A DNA stretch of 64,000 nucleotides from Desulfobacterales bacterium (GTDB taxonomy: Bacteria; Desulfobacterota; Desulfobacteria; Desulfobacterales; UBA5852), in assembly GCA_963674755.2 (NCBI GenBank), contig CAXXVS010000003.1:1152001-1216000 (forward strand), read 5' to 3'. Positions 8,815 to 41,220 of the stretch are shown in pieces. The notes beneath the pieces were generated by a model. That model saw nothing but the letters and a program-made list of their open reading frames with translations, was not told where the DNA came from and made no database searches. Position 1 is the first letter of the stretch, and each line of letters opens with the position of its first letter. Made by a program: the position numbers and the translations under genes.

Positions 8815-9252
8815 GGTCGTTCCTCCTCAAATCGGTCCGGTTCGCATCCCAACACCATCGACGAGCTTGAAGCGGGGTGCGACCTCACGTTCGTTTCCAT
8901 TTCCAAAGATAATGATTGATGGCGGAAGCACAATAAGGGAATCCATGTATCCCCGGCGACTCAGTTGCGTATGTGGGGGACCCTGGTGGAAGTTCCCGTG
9001 GACCCATCCCCTGCGCGATGGGTCGGAAGACGCGCTATCGTTGCCTATCAACGGCGGCGAGAATGGCGGCTCTCTGCGGATTGGCGCATTTAGCCTGGCC
9101 TATAAATAAGGCCGGCCGCCATTACGATCCCGGTAAAACGGCGCGTTTGGCCGCCCGTTATCACCCTTTAGCGTTTGAAAGTCATGCGCGTGGGATCGGA
9201 CGCATTTGCCGGCGGCGTCCGGCGTGCCTATGGTCCGCCTATGAATTCGAAT

Positions 9253-9522
9253 GGCCGATGACGCGGCGCCTCGTGCCGCCGTGCGGCGTTGTCAGGCTAA
9301 CTCGGGTGCTCACAATCTGAAGATTGCTGCGCGCCTCGTTTCACCTGACGCCTTGCCCGGCAGCACGATGCTTGCGCCATCAACCGATTGAAGCGGCCGG
9401 AGCGCGCGGAAACTCACTTCGCTCAGACCCGCCTGCGGCAAACCTTCGGCGGACAGGCAATCCGCACGCTTTAATCCGTCCGCCCCGCCGATGCTCGGCG
9501 CGGGACAAAGGGGAATTGAAAA
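9253..9522. repeat. Composite intergenic repeat copy 1 (125-bp ERIC-like module plus palindromic module)
   Basis: Closely similar to 18557-18852. Confidence 0.85.
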
Positions 9523-9587
9523 CCAAACCACAAAAACCACTTGGCGGCCTTCAAACCGCCCTAACCCCAGCAAGAGGGAGAATGACG

Positions 9588-10148
9588 ATGAAATCGATGC
9601 GAAGCATACGGATAAACGGTGGGCTCGTTTTATTGGCGGTTTTAGCTGCCCTGGCGGTCACGACTGCCGGTGCGGATGAGATGACGGACGGCAACAAGGT
9701 GGACCGCGCCGTGGCCGTGCTGCATCCCACCGAGGGCAACCGGGTCACCGGTACGGTGGTCTTTACCCAGGTCGGGGACAAGGTGCGGATTGAAGGTGCG
9801 GTCGAGAACCTGACCCCGGGCAAACACGGTTTCCATATTCACGAATGGGGCGATTGCAGTGCGCCGGACGGCTCATCCGCCGGGGGCCACTACAATCCGG
9901 ACAACAACCCGCACGCCGGTCCCGATCAGATGAAACGGCACATGGGCGATCTGGGCAATCTGGACGCCAATCCCATGGGCGAGGCGGACTATGAAAGGGA
10001 CGACGGGTATGTGGCCCTAAACGGACCGCATTCGATCATCGGACATGCGATCATCGTCCACGCCGGCCAGGACGACCTGACCTCCCAGCCCACGGGGAAT
10101 GCCGGCGGCCGGGTGGCCTGCGGCGTGATCGGGATTTCCCATGAATAA
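9588..10148 (+). CDS. sodC: Exported Cu/Zn superoxide dismutase
   Basis: Signal peptide; HGFHIH, GGHYNP, HMGDLGN, IVHAGQDD, GNAGGRVACGVI. Confidence 0.95.
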   Translation: MKSMRSIRINGGLVLLAVLAALAVTTAGADEMTDGNKVDRAVAVLHPTEGNRVTGTVVFTQVGDKVRIEGAVENLTPGKHGFHIHEWGDCSAPDGSSAGGHYNPDNNPHAGPDQMKRHMGDLGNLDANPMGEADYERDDGYVALNGPHSIIGHAIIVHAGQDDLTSQPTGNAGGRVACGVIGISHE

Positions 10149-10325
10149 AGGGCTTGCCAGGCGGTCAATTCGCCGCCGGACCGCCAGCGTGCCCCTGTTA
10201 GGCCGGCCCGATACCCCTTGCCGGAAGCGACCCGATGCGGCGCAAGCGGTTGAAGGCGGCCGGCTGCACAACCAGCGCAATCGTTTCCGGCAGCGTCACG
10301 GCGCGCTGCACGGCCGTGGACCGCC

Positions 10326-11324
10326 CTAGCTTGTCAGTCGCACGAGCGCCCGCACCATCTGGGAGGTATAGCCCCATTCGTTGTCGTACCAGCTCAGCAC
10401 TTTCACCAGATCGCCGTCCACGACGGTCGTCATGGTCAGGTCGACGATGGTGGCGCGGGGATCCCGGACCACGTCGGCGGAGACCAGCGGATCGTCGGTG
10501 GCGCCCAGGATACCGCGGTAGCGGTCGGATTGCGCGGCTTCGCGAAAGGCCGCGTTGACGGCGTCGACCGTGGTGGCGGCACGGGTCACGAAGACGATAT
10601 CGGCCAGCGAGCCGGACGGAACAGGGCCGCGCACGGCAATCCCGTCGAAGCGCCCTGCCAGGTCGGGCAGAATCCGGGTGGTGGCTCGGGCGGCCCCGGT
10701 GGAGGTGGGTACGAAGCTCACGGCCGCAGCCCGTCCCCGCCGCCATTTGTTGCGGGGACCGTCCACGAGAGCCTGGCTGGCGGTATAGGCGTGAATCGTG
10801 GTCAGGATGGCTTTGCGCACGCCGGCGTGCCGTTCCAGCACCTCGACCACGGGGGTGATGCAGTTGGTCGTGCAACTGGCGCAGGAGATCATGGTCGACC
10901 CGGCCGGCGGGGTATTGACGCCATAGACCACCATGGGGATGGTGTCGTCCTTGGCCGGTGCCGAAAGGACCACCCGCTTGGCGCCGGCATCCAGGTGGTG
11001 CTGCAGGCTTTTCGCGTCGCGGAAAACGCCGGTGCATTCCAGCACGGCATCGATCCCCAATTCCTTCCAGGGCAGTTGGGCAGGATTTTTCTCGTGGTAG
11101 ACCGGGATACGCTTTTCACCGAGGCGCAATTCCTGGGAACCGGCCTCGGCCGGCGGCAGGTGCCGACCGTGGACGGAATCATAGTTGATCAGATAGGCCA
11201 GGTTGTCGACGGCGATCAAGTCGTTGAGGGCGGCTATCTCGAGTTCGGGCGTGTCCAGAATGATCTTGAAGGCCGCCCGTCCGATGCGGCCCATGCCGTT
11301 GATGGCGATCTTGGGCTTAGGCAT
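10326..11324 (-). CDS. gap: Type I glyceraldehyde-3-phosphate dehydrogenase
   Basis: INGMGRIGR, ASCTTNC, WYDNEWGY. Confidence 0.95.
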   Translation of the reverse strand: MPKPKIAINGMGRIGRAAFKIILDTPELEIAALNDLIAVDNLAYLINYDSVHGRHLPPAEAGSQELRLGEKRIPVYHEKNPAQLPWKELGIDAVLECTGVFRDAKSLQHHLDAGAKRVVLSAPAKDDTIPMVVYGVNTPPAGSTMISCASCTTNCITPVVEVLERHAGVRKAILTTIHAYTASQALVDGPRNKWRRGRAAAVSFVPTSTGAARATTRILPDLAGRFDGIAVRGPVPSGSLADIVFVTRAATTVDAVNAAFREAAQSDRYRGILGATDDPLVSADVVRDPRATIVDLTMTTVVDGDLVKVLSWYDNEWGYTSQMVRALVRLTS

Positions 11325-11398
11325 ATGTCTTCCTCCCTTATGGTATGAGCGGCTGTTTCGCCGCAGGGCACCGCAACTTGTGCACCCGGCTCCGACTA

Positions 11399-11440
11399 TA
11401 GGGGCTTTGCATTAAGGGGGGAAATAGGGCTATGGCCCCA
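11399..11440. promoter_or_regulatory. Two 16-bp NarL-type operator-like sites upstream of gap
   Basis: TAGGG-gctttg-CATTA (11399) and TAGGG-ctatgg-CCCCA (11425). Confidence 0.5.
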
Positions 11441-11713
11441 TTGGACGATCGCGCCGGGCGTATTCCACCTCTTCCACAGCGCGTTCGTACACGGACGAAG
11501 TCTCTATGGTGTCTTGCGGATTCCGGGCGGCGGCCCCCTCCCGTCGACACGGATTGCAGACAGATCGGCCGGGCGCCATTGCCCTGTCTCCCGGAAAGAT
11601 GCACTGCTTTTTCGCGCGCGATAGATACGGCTTTGCAACCTTCCATATAGATTGCGGACCCTATTTTATCGCCCCATGATGTGCGGGAAAATGACATCAT
11701 CCGCCGTGATTCT

Positions 11714-12329: not shown

Positions 12330-12501
12330 CGATCCGCGGCCTTTTGCCCGCCTGAATGGATATTCAGCCTTTAGCGCATCGCAATAAGGTTTTGCCCCTA
12401 TATACGATCGACCGTGCCTGATTACCTTGAGAGGGAAGCGGGACCGTTCGGCGCGTCGTAGGATGGGCCCGTACCAGAGACCCCAGGAAGGAGGGTGAGT
12501 C

Positions 12502-13670: not shown

Positions 13671-13795
13671 GGTCTTCGGGGGGGGCGATGCAGGATATCC
13701 TGTATGGGGAGGAGGCGTGAGGTGTGGTAGCCAAAAGACACTTTACCGCAATTGTGTATGGCGGCTGACATCCGGCCGCACGAAAGGAGGTCACC

Positions 13796-14605: not shown

Positions 14606-14858
14606 TTTCTGCATCTCCTCTGTCGCATTGTCATCGGGTCGCATGCCGTTCAACAGCGGTTGGAGGAAGGGCAAACACCGCTCCGCGTAAGCTGCCGATC
14701 CATCCTGGATTATGCTCTGTCAAATTTGCCCGATTTTTGCAGCGGAAACCATGGGGTAAAGACCATATTATCGGATTCGTTTTATGGTACGGCTGTCTTC
14801 TACTTGCCTGGGGTGGCCGGGGGGAAGGGCTCAATCCGGCAATCCGGATGAAGCCGGT

Positions 14859-17261: not shown

Positions 17262-17576
17262 TGGGGCCGTTGCTGGATACTTGATGCTGGCTACTGGATG
17301 GTCGTCTTGTCGTTGCCGTCATCGAAACCGGATTAACATCTGTTACACCACGATACCCGAGTAGGGGGAATTCCCGAAAACCGTTATCCGGTACCCAGCC
17401 GCCATGCCGGCCCTCCGACCAATCCCCGAAGCGGTTTCCCCTCCCGCCCGTCTCCATCAGGTCGGATGCCAATATACAGGATCGCCGGTATTTACGCTTA
17501 ACCATCCGGGACCCATCCTAACAGGCAGCCTGCGGCGAGCAGCAGGCCCAACGATCGGAATTCGGGAGGAGATCCG

Positions 17577-18852: not shown

Positions 18853-18870
18853 CGGCTAAAAAGCCGTTTC

Positions 18871-21687: not shown

Positions 21688-22013
21688 CAGAGGCTGCCAC
21701 TTTCTGCCGGACGGTTTTTACAAGGTTTTTCAAAACCCCATCAAACATGCGATGGCGGCGTTGCCGCCTTCTTCAGGCAGCGGCGCAGGCCGATCCCGGT
21801 CGTGTTGGCGCTTCGCGACCACCGCTCGGGGCGCCCCCCCCCAGGCGGGGCGATCCGTGAATGACGCCGCTTCGGGGGGAGCCACGCATTGGCCTTGTAT
21901 TATAGGTGCTATAGTCGTGAACACCAATCAGTGCAAGTATGTATTTCCTGCCGCCAGGCCGTACCGTCCGGGCCATGGCTGAAGATTTGCGGGGCCATCC
22001 GCCAACGGCGGGC

Positions 22014-25000
22014 TCAGTCCGCGGGAAAGGGGGCAATGGCCTTGAGCAGCTCGGCTGAAGAAGCGCTCTTGCTGAGAAAACTTTCGGCGCCGGCTTTGCG
22101 CATCAGGATGCCGATCTGGTCGTCCTCGTGCATCGACAACCCGATGATGCGGATCTCCGGCATCTCGGCCTTGATCCGGCGGGTGGCCTCGATGCCGTCC
22201 ATTTTGGGCATGGAAACATCCATGATGATCAGATCCGGCCGCAATTCACGGGCCAGATCGATGGCCTGCTGCCCGTCGGCGGCTTCCCCTACCACGGCGA
22301 TGCCCGCTTGGCCGGCCAACAAGCCGGTCAGTCCCTGGCGCATGACCTGATGGTCGTCCACCAGCAGCACACGCAGGCCCGTCTCCGTCCCGGTGGATGA
22401 CAGCGGCGGGCGGTCAGGGGCCTCCCGGGGGGCGGTCGCCGGGTCGGCGGTCGACGATGTCGGGCTGGTGTTCAGTTCATAAGGAATGATCAGCGTGATG
22501 AAGCTGCCCCGACCCGGATTGCTTTGGATCTTCAAGCTGCCGCCGATGGAGCGGGCCCGCTCCACCAGACTCAACAGACCGAACCCCTTGGGTTCGGTCG
22601 TGTTGATGACGCTTTGCGTATCGAACCCCCGGCCGTCGTCCCGCACGGTGGCGAACATGTGGTTCCGGCCGCCGCCCACGGTAACGCGGGCCTCTTTGGC
22701 CCGGGCGTGTTTGACGACGTTGAACAGGAGTTCCTGAATGGCGCGGAACACGAACACGTTTAGCGGGGGACTGCCCAGTTCGTTGGGCGTCTTGACGTCC
22801 AGATGGACGGTCAGGTCGAATTGTTCCTTCATCTGACCGCCCAGCCATGTCAGGGTGGGCACCAGACCGGCGTGGTTCAACATGGGGGGACTCAATTCGA
22901 CCGACAAGTTGCGGGCCTGGTCGATCGCTTCCTTCAGGAGCGCTTCCACGTTGGCGAGCCTGTCATCGGGGGGCAGGTCAGCCGCTGTATGCTGAAGTTG
23001 CATACGGGCGCTGGCCAGTAGTTGTTGCAGGTCGTCGTGCAGCAACTCGGCCACGCGGCGCCGCTCCCGTTCTTCGGCTTCGATGAGCTCCACGGAGAGG
23101 GCTTGCAGCTGGCGGGCGCGGTTTTCGGCCAGGGCCGTGCGCTCGGCGACCTGCTCCTCGAGGGACTCCTTGAGGGCCAGCAAGGCCTCTTCCATGCGCT
23201 TGCGTTCGGTGATGTCGCTGCCCACGGCCAGAATTCCGGTCACCTGGCCGTCGGCGTCCAAAATCGGCTTGTTGGTCCAGGTCATCCAGACCCGCCGGCC
23301 GTCCCGGCAGACGTTTTCGTTGACATAGTTCATGAAACGTTCGGGGTGGGCCACAATATCCGCTACCAGCCCGCTTACCTCCGGGCCGGATGTATCCTGC
23401 TCCGGCAACAGGATGCTGACATGTTTACCGATGATTTCGTCGGCCGAATAGCCGAAGAAACGCTGGGCGAATTCATTGAAAAAGGTCAGATGTCCGTTTT
23501 TCTTCCAGCGAATGATAGCGCTGTTGGCATTTTGTACGAGGTCCCGGTAGTTGGCTTCGCTGGCTTTCAGTTTTTCCTGGTCCTGGCGGTGTTCGGTTTC
23601 GTCCCGCAGCACCAAGCCGACACGCCCGTCGTTCAGGCTGTAGACGGAGAGCACGATGTCTTTGCCGAGCGTCTCGAAGCGGATCTCGAATTGCTCCGGT
23701 TTGCCGCCGTGATCGATGGCCTCGAAGCGTTGGAGCAGATCCTCGGTCACCAGTTCGTCAAGACCGGCCGATCCGGCCCGTAAGGGCAGGGCATGATCCT
23801 CGATGCCGATCAAGGACAGCATGGCCGGGTTGGCCTGCTGGATGATCAGGTCGGTGGGCTGGCCCTGGGGGCCATGCTCGATTCCGCAGGTCATCAGGGC
23901 CGCATTCATGTTGTTCACCAGCAGCCGGTAGCGTTCTTCGCTGGATTTGAACTCGGCCAAAAGCTCGTTGGCCTCCTCCGATTTGGCGCGCAGCTCGTCG
24001 TTGACCGTGTTGAGTTCCTCGTTGGAGGCCTGCAGCTCCTCATTGCTCGTTTCCAGCTCTTCGTTGGAGGCCTGCAACTCTTCGTTGGCCGACTGCAGTT
24101 CCTCGTTGAGGGACTGCAGCTCCTCGGAGCTGGTTTCCAGTTCCTCCACCGTATCCTGGAGATGTTCCCGCGTGACCTCGAGCTCCTGCTCCAGTTCGCG
24201 GATCCGTTCGTATTCGACATCCCCGAACGGTCCCTTGCTGTGAGCGGCGGGCTTGGGCACCTCCACGGGCGTAAACACGATCAGGCGATTCGCCGTGGCA
24301 CTGCCGATCTGAGCCGGGCCGACGCGGATCAGGACGCCGCTCGCGCCGTCGTTCAGGGCGATCCGGTTGCTGGTCAGGGTGCGCTTTTCTTTGCCGACCT
24401 TGTGCAGCATGGATTGCAGCACGTAGCGGATTTCCGGTCGGGCCACATCGAGCAGATTGAGGGACTCTCGGATGCTGCCCTGGGGAAAACGGCAATAGGT
24501 GCCCACATCGCCGCGGATGTAAAGGATGTTGGCATTTTCGTCCGCCAGCACGGTGCAGCCGCTCAGCAGGTCGAGCAGTGCGTCGAACAAAAAGGCTTCT
24601 TTCTGATCGCTGGTTTTCCGGCGTTTGCGGAGGTCGGCCCGGTGGTTGCTCAGCTGGGCCATATGGCGGTTTTGCATCAGCCGGGGGAAACGCGTGCTCT
24701 GGCTTTCCTTGCGCCGGTAGATTTTCCATTTGTTGTCCACCGTTTTGAAGAGATCCAGGCGTTTGTTGATGGACTCGGATTTGCCCAGAAAGAGGAGCCC
24801 GTTGGGGTTCAGGCTGAATTGGAACAGGGCGAGCAGTTTATCCTGCAGCTCCGAGTTGAGGTAGATCATCATATTGCGGCAGCTGATGAGGTCCAGGTGC
24901 AGAAAAGGGGTATCTTTGATCAGGTCCTGCTGGGCCAGGACGACCATGTCGCGGATCTTCTTTTTGATCTTGACGGTGTTGTCGTGATGGGAAAAGTATT

Positions 25001-26195
25001 TTTCGAAGCGCCGGCCTTCGGTTTCCATGACCGTGGCCAGGGGGTAGAAGCCCTTGCGCGCCAGCTGGATGGCCTCTTCGTCGAGGTCGGTGGCGAAGAT
25101 TTGGGGGCGGTATTTGTTCACGTCGTCCCCCAGGATTTCCGTCACCAGGATGGCGATGGTGAAGGCCTCCTCGCCCGTGGCGCACCCCGGCACCCAGGCC
25201 CGGAAAGCGTCCCCCGGGGTTTTGTTCGCCAGAAGCTCGCGAAGGTGCTCGGCCAGCGCTTCGAAGGCCTGGGCATCGCGGAAGAAGCTGGTGACGGATA
25301 TCAGGAGGTCTTTCTTCAGGACGGCGACTTCCTCGGGGTGTGACTGAATATAGGTCACGTAGTCGCGCAGATTGTCGAGTTTGTGGATCACCATGCGCCG
25401 GCTGATGCGCCGCTGGATGGTGGTGGGCTTGTAGTCGCCGAAGTCGACCCCGGTATGCTGGTGGAGCATCTCCAGAATGGTGCCGATCTCATCGGCGTGC
25501 ATGTCCGGCGCTTTGACAATCAAGTGGGGGTATTTGAGCGCATTTTCGATTTCCGGGCCGATGTCTTCAGGGGGCAGGACCAAGTCCACCAGGCCGGTGT
25601 TGACCGCCGCCTGGGGCATGCCGTCGAATTTGGCGGTGCCGGCGCTTTGGGCCATGGTAATGCCGTCGTTCGATTTGATGGCCCGAATGCCGTGCGCGCC
25701 GTCGGTACCGGTGCCCGAGAGAACGATTCCCACGGCGCGGGCCCCCATTTCCTCGGCCAGGGAAATGAAGAAATAGTCCACCGAGGGACGCGGTCCGATG
25801 GCGGCGGGGGTACTGAGATGCAGGCGCTGACCGGAGAGGGTCACGTCGCGGTTGGGCGGGGTGATATAGATCGTGTCCGGCCGGACCGGCATGCCGTCGC
25901 GGATGGTTTCCACGGCCATCTCGGTGTGTTTGGCGAGCAGGGAGGAGAGCAGACTGCGGTGTTTGGGCGCCAGATGCTGGACAATGATGTAGGCCATACC
26001 GGCTTTAGCGGGCAGCCCCGGCAGGACCCGTTGCAGGGCATCCAGTCCGCCGGCCGAGGCGCCGATGCCGACCACGATCAGGTCTTTTCCGGTGGTCATG
26101 TGCCGGGCCGCTTCATTTCCGGTTTTTTGGAGCGCGTCTTTCGTGGCGGGTGGGGGTTGCTGATCCGGGGCACTGGGTTTGTCAGTATCGTTCAT
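22014..26195 (-). CDS. CheB/CheR fusion with PAS, HisKA_3 kinase and receiver domains
   Basis: GASAGG, LSGTGTDG, WVPGCATGEEA, ISCRN, ELQSxNEE coil, ELLHDDLQQ, DDGRGF, LIIMDVSMP. Confidence 0.93.
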   Translation of the reverse strand: MNDTDKPSAPDQQPPPATKDALQKTGNEAARHMTTGKDLIVVGIGASAGGLDALQRVLPGLPAKAGMAYIIVQHLAPKHRSLLSSLLAKHTEMAVETIRDGMPVRPDTIYITPPNRDVTLSGQRLHLSTPAAIGPRPSVDYFFISLAEEMGARAVGIVLSGTGTDGAHGIRAIKSNDGITMAQSAGTAKFDGMPQAAVNTGLVDLVLPPEDIGPEIENALKYPHLIVKAPDMHADEIGTILEMLHQHTGVDFGDYKPTTIQRRISRRMVIHKLDNLRDYVTYIQSHPEEVAVLKKDLLISVTSFFRDAQAFEALAEHLRELLANKTPGDAFRAWVPGCATGEEAFTIAILVTEILGDDVNKYRPQIFATDLDEEAIQLARKGFYPLATVMETEGRRFEKYFSHHDNTVKIKKKIRDMVVLAQQDLIKDTPFLHLDLISCRNMMIYLNSELQDKLLALFQFSLNPNGLLFLGKSESINKRLDLFKTVDNKWKIYRRKESQSTRFPRLMQNRHMAQLSNHRADLRKRRKTSDQKEAFLFDALLDLLSGCTVLADENANILYIRGDVGTYCRFPQGSIRESLNLLDVARPEIRYVLQSMLHKVGKEKRTLTSNRIALNDGASGVLIRVGPAQIGSATANRLIVFTPVEVPKPAAHSKGPFGDVEYERIRELEQELEVTREHLQDTVEELETSSEELQSLNEELQSANEELQASNEELETSNEELQASNEELNTVNDELRAKSEEANELLAEFKSSEERYRLLVNNMNAALMTCGIEHGPQGQPTDLIIQQANPAMLSLIGIEDHALPLRAGSAGLDELVTEDLLQRFEAIDHGGKPEQFEIRFETLGKDIVLSVYSLNDGRVGLVLRDETEHRQDQEKLKASEANYRDLVQNANSAIIRWKKNGHLTFFNEFAQRFFGYSADEIIGKHVSILLPEQDTSGPEVSGLVADIVAHPERFMNYVNENVCRDGRRVWMTWTNKPILDADGQVTGILAVGSDITERKRMEEALLALKESLEEQVAERTALAENRARQLQALSVELIEAEERERRRVAELLHDDLQQLLASARMQLQHTAADLPPDDRLANVEALLKEAIDQARNLSVELSPPMLNHAGLVPTLTWLGGQMKEQFDLTVHLDVKTPNELGSPPLNVFVFRAIQELLFNVVKHARAKEARVTVGGGRNHMFATVRDDGRGFDTQSVINTTEPKGFGLLSLVERARSIGGSLKIQSNPGRGSFITLIIPYELNTSPTSSTADPATAPREAPDRPPLSSTGTETGLRVLLVDDHQVMRQGLTGLLAGQAGIAVVGEAADGQQAIDLARELRPDLIIMDVSMPKMDGIEATRRIKAEMPEIRIIGLSMHEDDQIGILMRKAGAESFLSKSASSAELLKAIAPFPAD

Positions 26196-26703: not shown

Positions 26704-27183
26704 TTAAAGGGTGATGGTGATCGCTGCGGCCGCCGCCTCGGTCGTGATCAATGCGGCCACGGTCTTCAACAAGGTATCGAAGTCGAACGGCTTGGCGAGG
26801 ACGGCCTGGGCCGGACCGTGGCCGTTAACCATGTCCCGGACCGCCGCCTCGATTGCGCCGGTGATGAGCACCACCGGGGTTTCCGGCGACAGGGCCTTGA
26901 TGCGCGCCATGAGCGCCGCTCCGTCCATTACCGGCATCTGCAGGTCGGTGATGACCAGATCGTAGGAGGCCCGGCGGAACATCCGCCATGCCTGGCGGCC
27001 GTTTTCCGCCAGGGAGACCTCGTAGCCATGGCGCTGGAGATAAAGGGATATCAAGCGGCGCAGTTCGGGGTTGTCGTCCACCGCCAGCACCCGCCGGCGA
27101 TGGATAGCGTCGCAATGGTTGCTCGCCGGCGCCATCGCGGAAGTAACTGCACTGGGGGATTTACGGCGGCTGTGATGTTTCAT
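26704..27183 (-). CDS. Single-domain response regulator
   Basis: VLAVDD, DLVITDLQMP, LITG, KPF. Confidence 0.88.
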   Translation of the reverse strand: MKHHSRRKSPSAVTSAMAPASNHCDAIHRRRVLAVDDNPELRRLISLYLQRHGYEVSLAENGRQAWRMFRRASYDLVITDLQMPVMDGAALMARIKALSPETPVVLITGAIEAAVRDMVNGHGPAQAVLAKPFDFDTLLKTVAALITTEAAAAAITITL

Positions 27184-27488
27184 GGACGCATTCCTTGCGT
27201 GTTTCCGGGCCTGACGTCTTGGCAGTGGCCGGTGTCTTCGGAGGGGGGAGTGCCGCTGCGCGACCGGCCGTTTGCGCTTCTACGCTTCTATAAAATCTGT
27301 ATCGGACAATTCGGTCCGGGAGACAATGGGGGCGATACCTTATCGGATTTGGAAATGGCCTGTAGTCAGGTTAAGGGTGGATCGGAGAGGGCAAATTCGT
27401 TCGCCGGGACAGGCCGGTCCGCCATGTCCACCATCAAGGGGGGAGGGCGCGGCCGCCCGCAACGCTATCCGCCGGCAACGGGAAGGGG

Positions 27489-28793
27489 TCAGGAGGTGCC
27501 TATCACGCCCGTGCGCCGCCCTGCATAGGCGTCGAAGCCCAGCACGTCCTGTCCGTCATGGGGCAATATCAGGCAGACGGTGGTGCCCCCGCCCGGGCAC
27601 GAGTCGATGGTGAGGCGCCCGCCCGCCATGGCGGCCCGGTCGCGCATGCCCTGGAGACCGAAGCCGGTCAGGGCATCGCCGCCGTTGGTGGCATCCTGAA
27701 GGCGGAAGCCGCGTCCGTCGTCAGCGATGCACAGACGGATTTCCCGGGGTATCGAGATCAGGTGCACCTGGATATTTTCGGCCCCGCTGTGCTTGAGGGC
27801 GTTGTTGACGGCTTCTTGCAGCACCCGGTAGATGATGATCTTGGCCGGCTCGGGGATGTCGGTTTCGGCCGCTTGGATGTGGGTGCCGATGTGGATGCCG
27901 GCATACATTTCACCGCTGTTGCGGCAGTACCAATCGATGGTGGCCAGCAGCCCCAGGTCGTCCAGCGTGGAGGGCCGCAGACTGGCGGAGATCCGACGCA
28001 CCTCCTTGATGGTGTCGTTGAGGTGGGTCACCACTTTTTCAAAGGGAAAGATGGCCTTGGGGGGAGAATCGCCCATGTGAACGAGCCGGCCCTCGATGGC
28101 GTATTTGATGGCCGCCAGGCTGGCACCGATGCTGTCATGGAGCTCCTTGGAGATCTGTCGGCGCTCGTTCTCCTGGGTGTCGACAATTTTGAGAGTCAGG
28201 GCGCGTAAGGCCTGCTGGGATTCGCGCAGGGCTTTTTCGATATCTTTGCGTTCGTAGACTTCCGCCTGGAGGGCCTCCACCGTCAGGGCCAGCTCCCGGG
28301 TGCGCTTGGTGACCATGTCCTCCAAGGCATCGTGGGCCTGCTTCAGCTGGATCTGGGCCTGGCGGTGCGCCCGGCGGACGTCGTGCCGCCGCTTGACGTT
28401 CAACAGCTTGATGGGCAGGAGTTTGAGGTAGCCCTGGTTGGGATCTTTGATGATGTAGTCGTCCATGCCGGCCTGGAGGGCCTGTACGGCCAGAAGCTCC
28501 GAACCGGCGCCGGTCAACATGACCGCCGGTGGCAGATCGTTCTTTTGCCGCAAGACGCGGTAGGTATCCAGACCGTTCATACCCGGCAGGTTGTGGTCCA
28601 GCACCACGATGTCGAAGGCCTCACTGCCGGCCGCTATGGCGGCCGACATATCTTCACCGCGCCGGCAGATGGACAGCTCGAAGGGGATATTCATCTTGTC
28701 GATGGCCCGGCGAAAGGCCAACTGGTCGTGTTCGCTGTCTTCCACCAGCAGAATCCGCAGCGGGGTGGGCGGCGTTTGCGATTTCTGATTCAT
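27489..28793 (-). CDS. Receiver-HisKA_3 histidine kinase
   Basis: ILLVED, LDHNLP, ELHDSIG, QEAVNNALKH, DDGRGF. Confidence 0.92.
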   Translation of the reverse strand: MNQKSQTPPTPLRILLVEDSEHDQLAFRRAIDKMNIPFELSICRRGEDMSAAIAAGSEAFDIVVLDHNLPGMNGLDTYRVLRQKNDLPPAVMLTGAGSELLAVQALQAGMDDYIIKDPNQGYLKLLPIKLLNVKRRHDVRRAHRQAQIQLKQAHDALEDMVTKRTRELALTVEALQAEVYERKDIEKALRESQQALRALTLKIVDTQENERRQISKELHDSIGASLAAIKYAIEGRLVHMGDSPPKAIFPFEKVVTHLNDTIKEVRRISASLRPSTLDDLGLLATIDWYCRNSGEMYAGIHIGTHIQAAETDIPEPAKIIIYRVLQEAVNNALKHSGAENIQVHLISIPREIRLCIADDGRGFRLQDATNGGDALTGFGLQGMRDRAAMAGGRLTIDSCPGGGTTVCLILPHDGQDVLGFDAYAGRRTGVIGTS

Positions 28794-28992: not shown

Positions 28993-30642
28993 TCAGGGAC
29001 GGCCTATTTCCCTTGGCAGCATCACAAAGAAGGTCGTGCCGGTCTCCGGATCGGATTCCAGCCGAACGGATCCGCCGAGTCGGTAAGCGGCTTTGCGAAC
29101 GATGGCCAGTCCGATGCCGGTGCCTTCATACTCCCGCTGGGTGTGCAGGCGCTGGAAAATCCTGAAGATTTGCTCCCTGTATTGGGACGCAATACCGATG
29201 CCGTTGTCGCGTACGAAGAGCTCGATGCAGTCCTCCGGCGCCGGCTGCCAGCCGATGGCGATCTGTTTGGGCGTGCGGCGGTTGAACTTGATGGCGTTGG
29301 AGATCAGGTTCTGCAGAATCTGTTTGAGCAGCGTACGGTCGGCGTGAAACGAAGGCCACGCGGGGTCCACAGCGAAGTCGACATCGGGTGGCGCGCCCAG
29401 CAACGCCTGGATCTCATCGACAAGGCCCGGCACGTCGGCGGTTTCATGTTCCAGAACCAAAGCGCCAATGCGGGACAGGTCGAGCAGATCGCCGATCAAC
29501 TGTTCGCCCTGGAGGACCGCCTTTTGCATGCCCTCCAGATATTTTTTCTGGATCCCGGACAAGCTATCGGCCAGATCTTCGTAAAGGAAATCGGCGTAGT
29601 TGCGGATGGCCCGCAGGGGATCCTTCAGATCGTGGGAGACGGCGTAGGCGTATTGGGAGAGTTCTTCATTGATCCGCTCGGTTTCGGACAGTTGCCGAGC
29701 CATCTGAAGGTGGGCCAGGTGGACCCTCTCCTCGCTTTGCTTGCGGTGGGTGATGTCGAAGTTGATCCCGGCGATGTGCCGCGGCCGGCCTTCGGCGTCC
29801 CGGAAGATCAACCCCCGCGCCGCCAGCCAGCGGGTTTCCCCGTCGGCCCGCACCACCCGGAATTCATCCCGGACATCGTCGCCGTCCCTCGTCAGGTAGG
29901 TTCGGATGCTTTCGAGGAGGCCGGTGCGGTCCTCGGGGTGGATGAATTCGAAGAAGTAGTCTTCATTTTCCGGCCCCGCTCGGGGTTTGAGGCGCAGCAA
30001 TCGGTAGAGGCCCGCGTCCCACTTGGTCGTTCGATTGTCGAGATCGTAGATCCAGGTGCCCAGTTTGGCCGCCCGGGCGGCCATCTGGAGCTGGGAGTGC
30101 ACATGCTTCAGCTCGGCTTCCCGGCGGCGCAGAGGGGATATATCGAAAAAGGCAAGATGCCAATAGCGGAACTGCCCCTCCGCGTCGAAACGGGGCGCCA
30201 CTTGGATGTGGGTCTGGATCGATCGGTTGGACCGGCCCCGCAGGGCCAGTTCAAAGGAATGGGCCTGCCCTGTGGCGGCCACCCTGCGCATGGCGCGAAA
30301 AAAACGCCCCTGGTCCTTCTTTTCCACGAAAGGGGAAAACGCCTGCCCGATGGGCGGGACTTCAGGTTCGCCCAGGAGGCGCCGGGCGGCGGCATTGGCC
30401 CGTTGGATCAGGCTGTTGGCGTCCAGCGACACGAAAGCCACCGGCGTGGTTTCATAAAGATCGACATACGCATGCCGGGCCGACGCCAGATCGCGGCGGA
30501 GCCTGTGCAGCTTCTGGTCCTGGGAGGCCAGCGCGTTTTGGGCCTGTTCGAGTTCGCGGGCTAGGTGTCCAGGATCGCGGCGTTCTTCTGCGGTCAGGGC
30601 AATCCGCTCCCGGCGGTGTCGATATGATGGATCGTTAGCCAT
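28993..30642 (-). CDS. PAS-PAS histidine kinase
   Basis: SHDLKDPL, NLISNAIKF, DNGIGI, GTGIGL. Confidence 0.92.
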   Translation of the reverse strand: MANDPSYRHRRERIALTAEERRDPGHLARELEQAQNALASQDQKLHRLRRDLASARHAYVDLYETTPVAFVSLDANSLIQRANAAARRLLGEPEVPPIGQAFSPFVEKKDQGRFFRAMRRVAATGQAHSFELALRGRSNRSIQTHIQVAPRFDAEGQFRYWHLAFFDISPLRRREAELKHVHSQLQMAARAAKLGTWIYDLDNRTTKWDAGLYRLLRLKPRAGPENEDYFFEFIHPEDRTGLLESIRTYLTRDGDDVRDEFRVVRADGETRWLAARGLIFRDAEGRPRHIAGINFDITHRKQSEERVHLAHLQMARQLSETERINEELSQYAYAVSHDLKDPLRAIRNYADFLYEDLADSLSGIQKKYLEGMQKAVLQGEQLIGDLLDLSRIGALVLEHETADVPGLVDEIQALLGAPPDVDFAVDPAWPSFHADRTLLKQILQNLISNAIKFNRRTPKQIAIGWQPAPEDCIELFVRDNGIGIASQYREQIFRIFQRLHTQREYEGTGIGLAIVRKAAYRLGGSVRLESDPETGTTFFVMLPREIGRP

Positions 30643-30925
30643 AGTGTTGGATTGCGGTGAAAGCGTTTTCACCGCTCTGTAAGTTGTTAGGGACCAAGCA
30701 TTGCGACCATGATCGGAGGGCCTGCAGATTTTCTGATCAGACGCATCACGGCGGCGGTGGCAGGGGATCGTCCCTCTGATTCGGCGCTGTTTGCGGACGG
30801 AGATGGATTGCAGTGTACGCCACCCGGCCGCCGGAAGCAATAACTTGTAGGGGGTGATACAAGGAAAAGGCGGGAAACGGGAGGGCGGAACCCTTTGGCA
30901 GAGGGACCGGAAACGGCCGTCGATT

Positions 30926-31588
30926 TCAGCTTTTGCGCTCCACCAATCCCTTTTCGATGGCCAGGACGGTCAATTGGGCCACATTGTGCAGGTCGAGTTT
31001 GGCCATGATGTTGGAACGGTGCTTCTCGACGGTCTTGACGCTGATGCAGAGCATATCCGCAATTTCACTGTTGGTGTAGCCTTCGGCCAGCAGCTTCAGG
31101 ATTTCCTTTTCGCGCTGGGTGACGCTCTCCCAGGTGGTTTCCGATTGCTGCCGGGCGCGTTTGGTCAGAAACCCCTCCAGCACATGCCGGGCGATCAGCG
31201 GGCTGAGATAGATCTTGCCGGCCAGGACGCTGTCGATGGCCACCAGCAACTCCTCGCGGCTGTCGTTTTTGCTGCAATAGCCGTCCGCGCCGGCTTCGAA
31301 CGTTTCCAACACGTAGGTTTCGGATTGATGGATGGTCAGGACCAGGGTCTTGATGCCGGGCTGGTAAGTCTTGGCATCCAGCAGGACGGAAAGGCCGTTC
31401 ATGCGGGGCATGGAAAGGTCCAGGAGCATCAGGTCCGGTTTCAGGCGTTTGACCATGCGCAGGGCCTCAAGGCCGTCCACGGCTTCGCCCACGATGTCGA
31501 GCGCTTCCCGGTCGGCCAAGATGGCTTTAAGTCCCTCCCGCAGCATTTGATGGTCTTCAGCGATCAATACGCGTTTCCTGGCTGGCAT
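30926..31588 (-). CDS. NarL/LuxR-family DNA-binding response regulator
   Basis: IAEDH, LDLSMP, TQREKEIL...ISVKTVEKHRSNIMAKL. Confidence 0.95.
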   Translation of the reverse strand: MPARKRVLIAEDHQMLREGLKAILADREALDIVGEAVDGLEALRMVKRLKPDLMLLDLSMPRMNGLSVLLDAKTYQPGIKTLVLTIHQSETYVLETFEAGADGYCSKNDSREELLVAIDSVLAGKIYLSPLIARHVLEGFLTKRARQQSETTWESVTQREKEILKLLAEGYTNSEIADMLCISVKTVEKHRSNIMAKLDLHNVAQLTVLAIEKGLVERKS

Positions 31589-31677
31589 GGAGACTCTCCT
31601 TCGTGTGGGGGCGTGACCGCAACACAACGCATGGCATCCATCAATACCCCCCCTAACTGTCCGTCAATCTATACGGC

Positions 31678-31697
31678 AATACGGTCGAAGCCGTATT
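31678..31697. promoter_or_regulatory. Palindromic operator upstream of the NarL-like regulator
   Basis: AATACGG-tcgaag-CCGTATT, perfect 7-bp arms. Confidence 0.6.
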
Positions 31698-32097
31698 TTG
31701 GGCCGGGGGAGGATGTAGCGGGGGACGCCGTCAGTGGTGAAAAGTCCGATCAATCGCCAAACCGTCTATCGTGTTCATTGTAGTCGTCGTGGTCGTAATC
31801 GTGTTTTGAAATTCATTGAAACCATCGGGTACGATGACGACAACGACAAGGATGGCTTCTGTGGTTGCGGTTTCCAATTGGCGATGACAAACGACCAGGG
31901 ATGGGCATTATTGCCGGCGGAACTTATAGGGTGTGCTGACGCAGAAAGCGCACCGCCCGGAGTGGAGACTATCGTCGATGATGCGCTTCCTTCGTCAGCA
32001 CATCCGAGGGGTTGTCGTGAGGGCGCTTCGAGTTATGCAGCATGACCCATTGCGATTCAATGCTCGGTTAGGTTTTGCTAATGCCCGATAACCGCCG

Positions 32098-32275: not shown

Positions 32276-32422
32276 GGTTGGTTCCTTGGTCTGTCGTTTG
32301 GGCCCCCAGTAAGCTAACGTGCTTTTACGTACGGGGCCGGCCGACAGCAGGCACAATGTCATCATCCCCAGGTCTGGCCGGGAAAACAGGCGCTATCACC
32401 CCGTCTTAAACAATGATCACTT

Positions 32423-33280: not shown

Positions 33281-33382
33281 GGCAAAAGGGTTTCCATTTT
33301 GGTCCTTGGCCACTGGCCATTGACTGAAGTTAATGATCACTGACCAACGACAGGTGTTCCCACTGACCCATGACGGCTTTTC

Positions 33383-33925: not shown

Positions 33926-33938
33926 GGGCCCTCCTCTC

Positions 33939-34157: not shown

Positions 34158-34354
34158 CGCGGCCTCCTCGATGTCGAATCGTTGTCTCGTTTCCAAATGT
34201 TTTTTCGATCGCCGGGTTGCGGCCGGGCGCGTAATGCTAAAAGTTAATCTCAGGAAAGGCCCTTGGCCATAGGCTATGGCCTCTATTCCCTGCCGGCGAA
34301 GACTCTATTTGGCCTGCCGGGCCGATGATCCGTTCCACGAAGGGATGGCATAAA

Positions 34355-35257: not shown

Positions 35258-35705
35258 AGGACGTATGCGCTTCCAGGCGGCGGAGTGGCGGTTATCCCTG
35301 AGCAATCAACCATCAAATGGGGATATCCGTACGCGCAGGTTAAGGGGCGACGATCCCTACAAATACGGGCTGGACCCCATGGCCCCTTCCGGTGGCTCGC
35401 GGTAAGAAATCATTCTAATCGGTCGACGGATGCATGCGCCGGTGAACGCGGCGATTCTTTTAAGATCTTATTTCCCCTTTCCAACAGAGAAGACCGTTTT
35501 GACACGGTCCCATCACGACTCCGCCTTGACACACGGTTTTTGCCGGCTGTTCCGGCTTAATGGTCTGTGGCGCTGAAGAACGGCGGCCGGCGAGACGCGC
35601 TGATACCGTTCGCGTATGGAACATGGCGGGGCGTTCGCTATCCAACCCCATCAACCGCTCCGGGAGGTGTGCCGCCTCTGGCGTTGCGGGAGGAAAGGAC
35701 GGCCT

Positions 35706-36467: not shown

Positions 36468-36653
36468 TTGCCGCGGGCGCTTGTTGTCATCGAAGGGTTT
36501 TCCTAAACCCTGAAAAGACGCTTGCGACGCCCACGAGAAGGCCACCCCCCGGCCGTCATTCTCCGACTCGGCCGGAGCGGATGCCCGCCGCCGGTGATGT
36601 GCTTCCTTCGTCAGCGCATCCTATGGTCTACCGTTTATGGAGGGGCCCTGAGG

Positions 36654-36814
36654 TCAGGGGAGCGCGCGCACCACCCCGCCGTCCACCCGCTTTCCGTGCG
36701 CCCATTCATAATGACCCGGGTTCCCTCGGCGGGCATCCCCAGGGCGATGGCATAGCCGATGCCGGCCGTGGCGCCGGTAACCAGAGCGGTTTTGCCCGCA
36801 AGTTCCAAATCCAT
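36654..36814 (-). pseudogene. Internally deleted SDR oxidoreductase
   Basis: MDLELAGKTALVTGATAGIG...NGRTE joined (1-nt shift) to RVDGGVVRALP*. Confidence 0.8.
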
Positions 36815-36856
36815 GACTAGCTTTCCCTTATTTCTGCGCCGCCAGATGCCGCTCCG

Positions 36857-37819: not shown

Positions 37820-38175
37820 GGTGTCACCTCGCTTTGCTGCGGTAAAAAACGCATTCCTGCACGCCGGTCCCCTTCGATGAGGGCTTGCCGTCCCCATCGG
37901 TGCGGGCCGTGCGGTTTAAAGCCTAACCACCACCGGTGTCCAAGGCAATAGGACGCATCCTGTAGTCGCCACCTGCCGGGTCCTGGAGCGCCCCTAAAAT
38001 TTAAACGGTAGGTTTGCCGCCCTTTGGAGGGAAGGGGCGCCCCTGAAAGCCGCTATAGCGCCCGTCGTCGGTTTGTTGAACACCAATGGGTTACAGACCA
38101 GGCGTGAAATCCCGCACTGTGCGGCGGGATCCGAAACTAAAATCGACCATCTCCGGATGGGGACGACCTAAGGCC

Positions 38176-38538
38176 CTATCCGCTGATTTGGCGCTCGCGC
38201 CTTTCCATAGTGGTCTTGCACTCGATACAATGGCGGGCCACGGGACGGGCCTTGAGCCGCGCGACGCCGATAAATTCACCACAGGACTGGCAGACGCCGT
38301 AGCAGCCCTCCTCGATATCCTGCAAAGACTGGCGGATCTTGCGAATGAGCAAGTTTTCCCGGTTACGGATTCGCAGGGAGAAATTGCGGCTGCTTTCTTC
38401 CACGGCCTGGTCCATGGGGTCGGGCCGGCGCGTATTGAGGTCCTGCATGTCCGATACGGTGCGTCCGGCTTGCAGCAAAAGGTCGTTGAGCCATTCGTTG
38501 AGCTGCTTTTGGAACTGCTGGGTGTTTTTGGCGTTCAT
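38176..38538 (-). CDS. dksA: RNA polymerase-binding protein DksA
   Basis: DPMDQA (DxxDxA), CQSC...RLKARP...CIEC. Confidence 0.88.
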   Translation of the reverse strand: MNAKNTQQFQKQLNEWLNDLLLQAGRTVSDMQDLNTRRPDPMDQAVEESSRNFSLRIRNRENLLIRKIRQSLQDIEEGCYGVCQSCGEFIGVARLKARPVARHCIECKTTMERRERQISG

Positions 38539-38713
38539 GGGCAGGATCCTTTGTTCGAGGAAGAGGTTGGCAGGGGGATAAGAAGCACTACCACGCCAAA
38601 ACGACAATACCGGCGGGACCCCATTCAGGCCGGCCCGCAACGGTAGGTCGGCGGAGCGCAAACCGCCTTCCGACGCCAGGGAGCGGGGTGGACGTCTTGC
38701 CCGCGTCGTCAAT

Positions 38714-38757
38714 ACCGTCATGGAAGGAACCGCCATGGAAGGACCGCCATGAAAGGA
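38714..38757. repeat. Three tandem 14-15-bp repeats
   Basis: accgtcatggaagga / accgccatggaagg / accgccatgaaagg. Confidence 0.75.
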
Positions 38758-38769
38758 TAGGACTCGCTC

Positions 38770-39198
38770 TCAGCCCTTCAGGGACGCTTCCAGCTCGATC
38801 CGGGTGCCGGCCAGGGCTTTGGATACCGGGCAGCCCTTCTTGGCGGCTTCAGCCTGCTCCCGAAAGGCCGTCGCGTCCATTCCAGGCACATCGGCGGTGG
38901 TCTTGAGCCGAATGCCGGTGATCGCGAAGCCGCCCTCAACAGGTCCAAGGGTCACCTCGGCGCTTGTTTCGATCGTGCGGGGCGGATGCCCGGCCTGTTC
39001 GAGCAACATGGATAGCGCCATCGAAAAGCAGCCGGCATGGGCTGCGCCGATCAATTCCTCCGGATTTGTTCCGGGGCGGCCCTCGAAGCGGGTGGCGAAA
39101 GAATAAGCGCCGTCGAAAGCGCCGCTGCCGAGCTTCATGGTGCCCTTACCTTTTTTCAGCGTTCCTTCCCATCGGGCGTTCGCTTTGCTTGTGGGCAT
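38770..39198 (-). CDS. osmC: OsmC peroxiredoxin
   Basis: TNPEELIGAAHAGCFSMAL, CPVSKAL. Confidence 0.95.
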   Translation of the reverse strand: MPTSKANARWEGTLKKGKGTMKLGSGAFDGAYSFATRFEGRPGTNPEELIGAAHAGCFSMALSMLLEQAGHPPRTIETSAEVTLGPVEGGFAITGIRLKTTADVPGMDATAFREQAEAAKKGCPVSKALAGTRIELEASLKG

Positions 39199-39646
39199 GG
39201 ATCGATCCTCCTCCGGTGTGGTTTTGGGACGTCAGGTGTCGCTCCGGCATTCCTGTCCTTCATCGTGTAGCAGGCGGGTTCCCCCACGGCTATGGGGTGT
39301 GATGCGTATCTCGTTCTTCTCGGCAGGGTATCCGGCACGATGCGTCCGAAAAATCATACGGTACACCAGTCCCGGGAAATCCGGTGAACGGACCGCCCCC
39401 GTCACCCTGCGCAAGAACTTCCCAGGGTCGATCAAATACCGTGCGCCGCTTCCTGGAATACATCCGATAGCCTATTGGGCTGCGACACGGGACCCTCGTA
39501 GAATAACAACTCATAAAGGAGCCTTGCGGATCCATGCGACCCTGTCACGGAAAGACATCGAAGATTCGCTGAAAGACGCCGGTCCGGCCAAATCGAAGCC
39601 GCCGGCAAAACCCTCATGCCCCAACAACGCTAAGAAGGAGGTTAGG

Positions 39647-40042
39647 ATGACAACCATTGGCGACATTTATCAAACCGCGGACTGGAAATCGGAGAAGCAT
39701 GTGCCCGTGATCGAATGCCCGGACCGTGTGAAAGCGGACGAGGTTTTCGACGTCAAGGTATCCCTCGGCAAGGAAGTGGCCCACCCCAATACCACCGAGC
39801 ATCACATCCGCTGGATTCAGCTCTACTTCAAACCCGAGGGGGGCAAATTCGCCTATCAGGTGGGCAATTTCGAGTTTACGGCCCACGGCGAATCCACCGA
39901 AGGGGCCAACCAGGGCCCGGTGTACACCAACCACACTGCCACGGCCAGCATGAAGATCAACAAGCCGGGGACCCTGCTGGCCACCGCGTTTTGCAACATT
40001 CACGGCCTGTGGGAAAACGCCAAGGCGGTTTCCATCGGGTAA
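39647..40042 (+). CDS. Class II superoxide reductase (neelaredoxin type, 1Fe-SOR)
   Basis: EKHVP, HPNTTEHHI, CNIHG; no N-terminal desulforedoxin domain; RBS aggagg. Confidence 0.93.
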   Translation: MTTIGDIYQTADWKSEKHVPVIECPDRVKADEVFDVKVSLGKEVAHPNTTEHHIRWIQLYFKPEGGKFAYQVGNFEFTAHGESTEGANQGPVYTNHTATASMKINKPGTLLATAFCNIHGLWENAKAVSIG

Positions 40043-40172
40043 AAGATGGTCGAGCCCCGGGATTCCCTGGGGCGCAGGCCTATGGTCTGCCGGGGCGACC
40101 AATCGGATACAGGGTCGACGGCGGCCGTCGCTGCCGACCGCCAACGCAGAATCATTGATAAAAGGAGACGAT

Positions 40173-40502
40173 ATGCGGATGACATATCGTGCCATCGGAA
40201 CCGCCTTGGTGCTTTTGGGTCTGTCCGGGGCGCTATGGGCGGTGCATGCCCAGGATGATAAGATCTACACCCAACAGGGCGTGCTTGAGGACGTGAATGA
40301 TCAAGCCTATACCATCAAGGTGCAGGTACCGCTGGACGATGGTCAGCAGATGACGGTTGCCGGGCCGCTGGTGGAAGGCGCCGTCATACGCATCGAAGGC
40401 CACACGGGTGGGCTGCCCGACCTCATGGTGGGGGAGAACGTCACCGTCACATGGAAAACGACCCCCGAGGGCGTTGCCATTCTGTCCGTACAGCAGCGTT
40501 GA
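40173..40502 (+). CDS. Small exported hypothetical protein
   Basis: RBS aaggag; signal peptide ending VHA; beta-rich. Confidence 0.65.
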   Translation: MRMTYRAIGTALVLLGLSGALWAVHAQDDKIYTQQGVLEDVNDQAYTIKVQVPLDDGQQMTVAGPLVEGAVIRIEGHTGGLPDLMVGENVTVTWKTTPEGVAILSVQQR

Positions 40503-41220
40503 CCGTTCCCTTGCATTGATTTCTCGTCCGGAAAGGCGGCGGTTCCCGCCGTGGGTGTCAAAAATGGGTCCGACAGCGGGTGCAAAGCGGCGGATGCGGG
40601 ATGGGCGCGCCGCAGGACCTGCAGCGGGTCGGGGAGACCGTCCGATTCGGCGGCACGGAAGACGCATGCAGTTCGATTCCGTCCAGGACGCGGATCAGGG
40701 GCAGGTGGAAGCGGCGCTGGTGAATGAAGCCGAGAAGGGTTGACCGGAAGTCGCGGTCGATGACCGGGTTGACATTGCCCGACGGCTCCGCCAGCGCAGT
40801 AGCGTGCGGCGCCGGAATTTGATCGCCGGTCGACGTGTGGGTCGCAAGAGGTTTCATGGGCCTGTCCTTTCGATGGCATTGCGTGCCGCTGGAATGAACG
40901 CTCTTGGTTCTTTGTAGACCATTCCGCAGATCGGACCCATCCGCAACAGACCCCATCCAGGCGGTTATTCACCCCTAGACCTCACCTCCGAAAGCCTTTA
41001 GCCTGGCGATCCCGTTGCTGCTTCCGGATACATCTCCGCTTCTATTTGGATGAAACGCTATGGTGTCTTATTATTATAGTAAAGGCGGATACGGGCCATC
41101 CGTTGGCGGTGTCGGCCCGGCCGGCGTGAATAGATTCCAATCGCGCCTTCTATAGGCGGCAGCTGCGCGGGGCTTCGCGAACGCCCGCCGGCCCTGTGGA
41201 AGGCAGGAAGGAGGCATCCC

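Follow-up and report, generated by a model that had tools for sequence, protein, structure and literature searches.

The stretch analysed here (the window, 64,000 nucleotides; positions 1152001-1216000 of contig C3 in the 6.7-Mb genome G000) carries a cluster of stress genes at about 7400-41700, arranged around a signalling core that includes the NarL/FixJ-family response regulator RR1. Intergenic regions of this cluster, below also called the island, share a palindrome which is almost certainly a real and conserved motif, and which is probably the binding site of one clade of NarL-type regulators activating a general stress regulon across Desulfobacterota. On the sequence level, the motif, its enrichment and conservation, its link to the regulator clade and its spacing to a hexamer TAnnnT could be demonstrated. 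Site and gene positions without a genome prefix are window coordinates; G000 is the host genome, and other G codes denote related genomes. Genes were called with simple purpose-made gene finders, and therefore gene starts and intergenic limits are approximate.

The original prediction listed 16 sites in this cluster under a shared 16-bp motif, TA(C/G/A)GG-N6-CC(G/C)TA. All 16 strings are present where they were placed. The shared palindrome was confirmed, but it is longer than proposed: A occupies position -9 in 24 of the 32 half-sites, as seen in the flanks of the listed sites, and the consensus from relatives, (a)AATA[C/G]GG-N6-CC[C/G]TATT(t), extends over 20-22 bp with AATA/TATT flanks. Because a matrix trained on the listed sites would be circular when applied to them, the sites were divided into the right-hand nine and the left-hand seven. 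At a threshold of 12 bits, the right-hand sites predicted 4 matches in the left part (0.09 expected) and the left-hand sites 3 matches in the right part (0.20 expected). A blind search for spaced palindromes in the island promoters (4096 words × 13 spacers) placed ATAGGG-N6 first, with 8 occurrences observed versus 0.36 expected. With a matrix rebuilt from 83 sites of relatives (the relatives' matrix), 12 intergenic matches of at least 11 bits were found in the island versus 0.38 expected, so that the predicted enrichment over background held, in agreement with the half-split test. Elsewhere in G000 the same matrix gave 63 intergenic matches, versus 23 expected from the rate in coding DNA.

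For conservation, the surroundings of RR1 homologues (80 loci from Desulfobacterales, Syntrophobacterales, Syntrophales, Desulfarculales, Desulfobulbaceae and a few gammaproteobacteria) were scanned with the window matrix at a threshold of at least 12 bits. The closest named homologues of RR1 come from Desulfobacteraceae and Desulfobacterales records. At spacer 6, there were 84 intergenic versus 12 coding matches, distributed over 50 of the 80 loci; as controls, seven other spacers gave 1-23 matches and 30 column shuffles 2-14. When 79 of these loci were searched blind, without input from the window, the top seven words were all registers of the same motif. The regulator clade is present in 24 of 61 related genomes. 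In 23 genomes with the regulator, a loose pattern was counted 103 times at spacer 6 versus 63 times at spacer 7; in 37 other genomes, the counts were 92 and 105. Such whole-genome pattern counting is weak, with a background about as large as the signal. At the same locus, the G004 version of the cluster is 89 kb long and has 17 matches in intergenic DNA and none in coding DNA. In G005, which has no regulator match at E<=1e-60, the cluster was not found between the same flanking genes, and 25 kb there contain no site.

The geometry of the presumed promoters was analyzed with 88 sites scoring at least 13 and oriented toward an unambiguous gene not more than 200 bp away (loci L001-L100 minus three duplicates). 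A hexamer TAnnnT starting 31 bases from the palindrome centre was found on the gene side in 32 of these and on the far side in 4; for starts at +30 to +32, the counts were 45 and 8. If the hexamer start is taken as -12, the palindrome centre lies at about -43.5. According to the accessible text of PMC10853779, the E. coli NarL dimer activates yeaR from -43.5, and the alpha-subunit C-terminal domain there binds the minor groove between the NarL monomers. The fixed spacing between site and -10 element likely matches this NarL-yeaR-type activating position. Also, A/T occupies the two central positions in 87% and 82% of 84 sites, although these columns were zeroed at selection, and in 7 cases a weaker second site lies 22 bp upstream (mean score -17 versus about -29 at other offsets). 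In the window, a full TAnnnT follows sites 8934, 11425, 12385, 21928, 34270, 37949 and 39459. A consensus promoter scan did not find a -35/-10 pair facing RR1.

RR1 contains PF00072 and PF00196 above cut-off, i.e., a receiver plus a LuxR/GerE helix-turn-helix. Its gene is intact, the protein is conserved at 85-91%, and its phosphorylation pocket is preserved (E11, D12, D57 and K107 invariant, T85 nearly invariant in 15 sequences). G000 encodes seven NarL-type regulators, among them RR2 (C3:1379166), which is 62.5% identical to RR1. The recognition helices of RR1 (KTVEKHRSNIM) and RR2 (KTVEKHRANIM) share the pattern KTVEKHR.NIM, and the five other regulators have different helices and branch outside the RR1/RR2 clade. 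Within 10 kb there are six strong intergenic sites around RR1, two around RR2 and none around each of the five others. The palindrome is likely bound by the RR1/RR2 clade as a predicted activator. The RR2 locus (G000:C3:1379166-1386586; L104, L105) forms a second, smaller cluster of the same kind: a HisKA_3 kinase gene is convergent with RR2, two strong sites lie at 1381429 and 1381576, and PLD-VTT and PRC-barrel genes follow downstream.

It had been proposed that the local regulator controls the stress genes. The palindrome does mark these genes and travels with the regulator clade and HisKA_3 kinases, but RR2 with its matching helix could bind equally well. In G001, G006 and G010, a cluster of osmC, sor, usp and desulforedoxin genes with sites adjoins RR2, and therefore either paralogue may act in G000. 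Going further, only the distant paralogue RR2 might bind the motif in G000, with RR1 as a regulated target or modulator. This would suit the clusters beside RR2, the distribution in genus relatives (RR2-type genes in six, RR1-type in two), the missing Lys174 of RR1 (see below) and the degenerate -10 hexamer before RR1 in the window. We consider it quite unlikely, since the two helices are nearly identical and RR1 is intact and conserved, with a perfect site and a correct -10 hexamer in G004 and G008.

Next to RR1, the signalling core contains a PAS-PAS-HisKA kinase, a REC-HisKA_3 kinase, a single receiver and a CheB-CheR-PAS-HisKA_3 hybrid kinase. The REC-HisKA_3-HATPase protein is likely the direct phosphate donor to RR1. 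In G004 and G008, a second CheB-CheR gene, missing in the window, lies directly behind RR1 (L002:3779-5917; L003:1184-3322). HisKA_3 kinases near RR1 number two in the window, and 59 proteins of 142 to 1568 aa were found in 53 of the 100 loci L001-L100; none of these 59 has a CxxC...CxxC pattern before the kinase core. The window kinases show only PAS, REC, CheB and CheR as input domains, and a GAF domain was not found in them. Apart from the regulator and its kinase, no gene is shared by most of the 80 loci.

A site lies within 350 bp of the regulator gene in 28 of 77 loci outside the window, compared to 2-7 at control spacers. In those 28 loci the -10 hexamer faces the regulator in none and points away in 12; the divergent gene is often a single receiver. 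The proposed autoregulation was therefore rejected as a general feature outside the RR1 subclade. Within this subclade self-activation would fit, as the site faces its own gene and the hexamers are good in G004 and G008, with a degenerate one in the window. An unrelated widespread transcription factor that binds the palindrome, with the NarL-type gene merely among its targets, could account for the site never facing the regulator gene and for loose-pattern matches in genomes without the regulator. Such a factor is very improbable: the 37 regulator-less genomes show no excess over the control spacing, regulator and kinase are what the loci have in common, and SsrB, a relative with a similar helix, selected a sequence like the right arm of the palindrome (mCCyTA, in the accessible text of PMC2837388).

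The cluster contains genes for SpoIIAA-like, desulforedoxin-like, SodC, KH, CBS and DksA-BON proteins, gap, glucokinase and an AAA_33 kinase, as well as for UPF0182, FNT, Yip1, cytochrome c, aldo-keto reductase, DksA, OsmC, superoxide reductase and a universal stress protein (USP). Behind sites in relatives, 73 genes were collected. Four of these encode sigma factors (two RpoH-like, two RpoD-like); other identified ones are those for SodC, superoxide reductase, gap, BON, PRC-barrel and KH proteins, PEP synthase, a GlgC-like enzyme, receivers and kinases. The cluster of G004 adds trehalose phosphatase, glycogen enzymes, GlgE, DJ-1/PfpI, PCMT and BON proteins. We take the target types in the window and in relatives to be general-stress genes. 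Neither RpoS nor SigB exceeded the cut-off in any of the five genomes tested. A second RpoH-like gene lies inside the cluster in G001 and G010. Extra RpoH-like or RpoD-like sigma factors in the regulator's cluster were noted at G001:C3:4713592-4714383, G010:C18:24843-25634 and in L027, L035, L049 and L056, in four of these loci directly behind a site.

Strong G000 sites outside the island precede cydA (C1:1129152), phosphoketolase (C1:1283210), aldo-keto reductase (C2:2530988), RND adaptor (C2:1642080), hcp (C1:655929) and aceE (C3:2372631). As conserved targets, cydA and phosphoketolase were dropped, since none of 29 cydA and 4 phosphoketolase homologues showed a site in its upstream region (about 39-69% identity; these may not be orthologues).

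Instead of answering to many stresses, the regulon might respond to oxygen or redox change in particular, as the counterpart of DosR/NreC in anaerobes. Superoxide reductase, desulforedoxin-like, SodC, OsmC, USP, CBS and AAA_33 kinase among the targets point in this direction, as do the strong site before one cydA copy in G000 and the short superoxide reductase, which was found in 7 of the 61 genomes, each of them one of the 24 that carry the regulator. The sensors and the wider target list argue otherwise: the window kinases have no GAF domain, the cysteine pattern is missing in all 59 HisKA_3 proteins, the G004 cluster adds the genes named above, and the cydA site was not found before the homologues. 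An oxygen-specific regulon is therefore unlikely, and a general role appears to be the better reading of the target genes.

Several findings weigh against a general stress regulon under this clade. On the side of the motif, 4 of 193 equal genome tiles had a stronger best word than the island in the blind search, so that the island alone is suggestive, not decisive; the relatives' matrix is not fully independent, because its 83 sites were picked with the window matrix; in G000 itself the loose pattern occurs equally often, six times each, at spacers 6 and 7; and counts overstate independence because the genomes examined are kin. No site of at least 12 bits was found in 30 of the 80 loci, among them four of the five from Thiodiazotropha, which share the helix. 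A full TAnnnT is missing at window sites 13689, 17475, 27327, 31680, 35364 and 38608. Only 3 of the 7 superoxide reductase genes have a site before them, and the missing sites before cydA and phosphoketolase homologues belong here as well. Finally, RR1 has Ser at the NarL Lys174 position (Lys in 64 of 78 relatives) and Asp at Arg178, and therefore its polymerase contact may differ. The tiles, together with the 6 of 16 listed sites at background, would also suit a motif that arose by chance from by-eye picking in GC-rich DNA. This is extremely improbable in view of the blind recovery in 79 other loci, the fixed spacing to the -10 hexamer and the conservation of single sites; for the strong sites a chance origin is refuted by the 80-locus footprint, the 79-locus blind search and the -10 spacing.

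In the proposed mechanism, HisKA_3 kinases with varied inputs would phosphorylate the regulator, whose dimer would bind at about -43.5, over the -35 region, and recruit RNA polymerase in the manner of NarL at yeaR. The two A/T-rich bases at the centre would serve the alpha-subunit C-terminal domain, and some promoters would use a weaker second site 22 bp further upstream. RR1 in the window and RR2 at G000:C3:1379166 would both read the motif, and the signal would likely be dampened or passed on by the induced single-domain receiver. The regulated functions would be the removal of oxidants, the care of protein and DNA, and the storage of sugar, in genomes where RpoS and SigB were not found above cut-off. 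Tentatively, the clade could be a master general-stress switch in Desulfobacterales and syntrophic relatives, in which one NarL-type activator at -43.5 replaces RpoS/SigB for survival, oxygen defence and sugar storage, fed by many kinases, braked by the induced receiver and extended in some genomes by a second RpoH-like sigma factor. Anoxic sediments are dominated by sulfate reducers and syntrophs of these orders, which also withstand oxygen, desiccation and starvation. With the protein clade named, the motif precisely defined, a start-site position predicted and the targets listed, the proposal is testable by a binding assay and one expression experiment. Also, motif and -10 spacing can be used for reading stress regulons out of uncultured genomes.

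The single sites of the window are collected in Table 1. Under the relatives' matrix, eight of the listed sites are strong, with 11.9-21.6 bits (8934, 11425, 12385, 13689, 17475, 31680, 34270, 35364), among them 31680 with the perfect arms that had been ascribed to it, two are weak (37949 and 39293), and six lie at background with 3.8 to -9.4 bits (11399, 17362, 35316, 35344, 38009, 41090). Two assignments were given up: 11399 as a gap site, which overlaps the predicted -10 hexamer TATAGT of the gap promoter (11395-11400, after site 11425), and 41090 as a USP site, which does not recur in relatives. Six further sites, missed before, were added by the relatives' matrix (11648, 14752, 21928, 27327, 38608, 39459).

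Sites of at least 10 bits before the same gene in relatives exist for 8934, 11425, 12385, 13689, 14752, 17475, 21928, 27327, 31680, 38608, 39293 and 39459; none recurred upstream of the same gene for 34270 and 41090, and the target genes of 35364 and 37949 have no homologue for comparison. Site 8934 reaches at least 10 bits in G004, G006 and G008 and 7.3 in G001; downstream of its desulforedoxin-like gene follow a 68-aa protein and SpoIIAA-like 7918-8292. Site 12385 is conserved in G004 and was not found in G008. The product of 13796-14236 is PilZ-like by eye, without a Pfam match. On the other side of site 14752 lie a divergent CBS protein (15150-15614) and the AAA_33 kinase (15645-17261). 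The -10 hexamer of site 31680 is degenerate in the window (TAGGGG) and intact in G004 and G008. Site 34270 faces the minus-strand zinc-finger/Yip1/FNT genes 32423-34157, not TIGR01777. The osmC site has 19-25 bits in G001, G006 and G010, with none near osmC in G008, and site 39459 is conserved in G001 and G010.

Table 1. Predicted sites, signalling genes and further stress genes of the window.
Feature	Position	Strand	Score (bits)	Remarks
Site 8934	8931..8952	-	12.9	TATCTT at +30; upstream of desulforedoxin-like 8656-8814
Cu/Zn superoxide dismutase	9588..10148	+		no site found here; upstream site present in G008 and L025
Site 11425	11422..11443	-	20.2	upstream of gap 10326-11324; conserved in G004 and G008
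Site 11648 (added)	11645..11666	unassigned	15.8	near-identical in G004
Site 12385	12382..12403	+	20.8	TACCTT at +30; upstream of glucokinase 12502-13491
Site 13689	13686..13707	+	12.3	upstream of 13796-14236; conserved in G004
Site 14752 (added)	14749..14770	-	10.9	upstream of KhpA-type KH protein 14387-14614
Site 17475	17472..17493	+	18.2	upstream of DksA/TraR zinc finger-BON 17577-18362; conserved in G004 and G008
Site 21928 (added)	21925..21946	-	7.7	TATAAT at +31; upstream of UPF0182 18922-21687; conserved in G004
CheB-CheR-PAS-HisKA_3-HATPase-REC hybrid kinase	22014..26195	-
Single-domain receiver (REC) protein	26704..27183	-		candidate phosphate sink or relay
Site 27327 (added)	27324..27345	-	14.4	upstream of single-domain receiver; conserved in G004
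REC-HisKA_3-HATPase kinase	27489..28793	-		no sensor domain
PAS-PAS-HisKA histidine kinase	28993..30840	-		start uncertain
RR1, NarL/FixJ-family response regulator (220 aa, P0001)	30926..31588	-		predicted binder; recognition helix KTVEKHRSNIM
Site 31680	31677..31698	-	21.6	perfect arms; upstream of RR1
Site 34270	34267..34288	-	11.9	TAACTT at +31 on minus strand
Site 35364	35361..35382	+	17.3	upstream of DUF2231-cytochrome c 35706-36467
Site 37949 (weak)	37946..37967	-	5.3	TAGGCT at +31; upstream of aldo-keto reductase 36857-37819
Site 38608 (added)	38605..38626	-	12.9	upstream of dksA 38176-38538; 20.2 bits in G008
Site 39293 (weak)	39290..39311	-	6.4	upstream of osmC 38770-39198
Site 39459 (added)	39456..39477	+	11.5	TAGAAT at +32; upstream of superoxide reductase 39647-40042
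Universal stress protein	41221..41673	+		listed site 41090 unsupported

Further features of the stretch were noted. As regards signs of a mobile genomic island, the GC content is 61.8% in the region versus 58.5% in the contig; an integrase was absent among the open reading frames scanned in the window, and a border tRNA was also not found. An ARAGORN tRNA-Gly call at 58943-59037 lies inside a kinase gene and is probably spurious. A dispersed non-coding repeat at 9290-9540 and 18460-18930 has 39 and 40 genome matches of at least 100 bases and is also numerous in four genus relatives; its first copy sits between site 8934 and sodC, where G004 does not align. Positions 36635-36814 encode a 59-aa N-terminal fragment of a short-chain dehydrogenase (SDR), with a longer SDR at the matching place in G008 (L172). 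The aldo-keto reductase gene contains a 17.3-bit match in its coding sequence (37185-37206), some 380 bp upstream of this fragment. In the blind search, the G000 tile C1 791200-825600 gave a very strong palindrome TCATGA-N3 (20 versus 0.33 expected), probably a repeat array. Contigs of three sequencing runs over 26000-42500 show a strain about 98-99% alike along most of the stretch.

Among known systems, NarL at yeaR (accessible text of PMC10853779) shares family and fold by sequence, a palindromic dimer site, a centre at about -43.5 and T/A at -8/-7. Against NCBIfam PRK10651, the E. coli NarL orthologue, RR1 scored 145.1 bits, below the cut-off of 250. The NarL box is mismatched at 4-9 of 12 positions, the A/T flanks are longer here, the helix reads EKHRS instead of KVHVK, nitrate genes are missing, and cytoplasmic kinases stand in place of NarX/NarQ. 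USP, CBS and AAA_33-kinase genes are linked to the DosR regulon, which has a GAF-domain haem sensor kinase. All three types are present in the cluster, the USP without a supported site and the AAA_33 protein as a candidate for likeness to Rv2004c. A NarL-family regulator, a 20-bp palindrome and clustered targets are common traits. In contrast, the DosR consensus TTSGGGACTWWAGTCCCSAA, as given in the accessible part of PMC2275270, has 10-18 mismatches in 20 positions at the 16 window sites and 6 at the best island match, and the G-runs are 2 bp closer here. The helix is KTVEKHRS in RR1 and KTVKNYVS in DevR/DosR, a GAF kinase was not found in the window, and the targets here serve oxidant removal and sugar storage. 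The label DosR-like, understood as membership, was therefore rejected on box, recognition helix and kinase domains.

Staphylococcal NreB is an Fe-S PAS kinase with four cysteines, and the NreC box presumably looks like the inner 16 bp of the palindrome. The NreB-like cysteine pattern occurs in none of the 59 kinases, and nitrate respiration targets are missing here. What is shared with NreBC, as far as the accessible texts of PMC8139620 and PMC5694512 go, is a NarL-type regulator on a GC-rich palindrome. The solved DNA-binding domains closest to RR1 are those of EsrB, LiaR/VraR-type proteins and SsrB (KTVETHR); against NCBIfam PRK15369, RR1 scored 182.6, below the cut-off of 242. For SsrB, a one-hybrid screen selected mCCyTA and an 18-bp palindrome was used (PMC2837388, accessible text), and an EsrB motif is given in the available part of PMC6592360. 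The 18-bp palindrome has the same register as the one found here; SsrB and EsrB act on secretion systems in enterobacteria, in contrast to stress genes in Desulfobacterota. For D. vulgaris, the accessible text of a mapping study contains no motif for DVU2577 or DVU2675, both regulators, and pairs DVU3305 with a Lon-type protein, a partner that was not seen here (PMC3333781). In a literature search covering few subscription journals, a described stress regulator for these sulfate reducers and syntrophs was not found.

General stress regulons are known under RpoS, SigB and PhyR-EcfG. These share with the present system OsmC, DJ-1/PfpI, BON, PRC barrel, aldo-keto reductase and trehalose and glycogen enzymes among the targets, and also several kinases plus a single-domain receiver. 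The difference lies in the switch itself, which here is predicted to be a NarL-type activator at a fixed site and not an alternative sigma factor.

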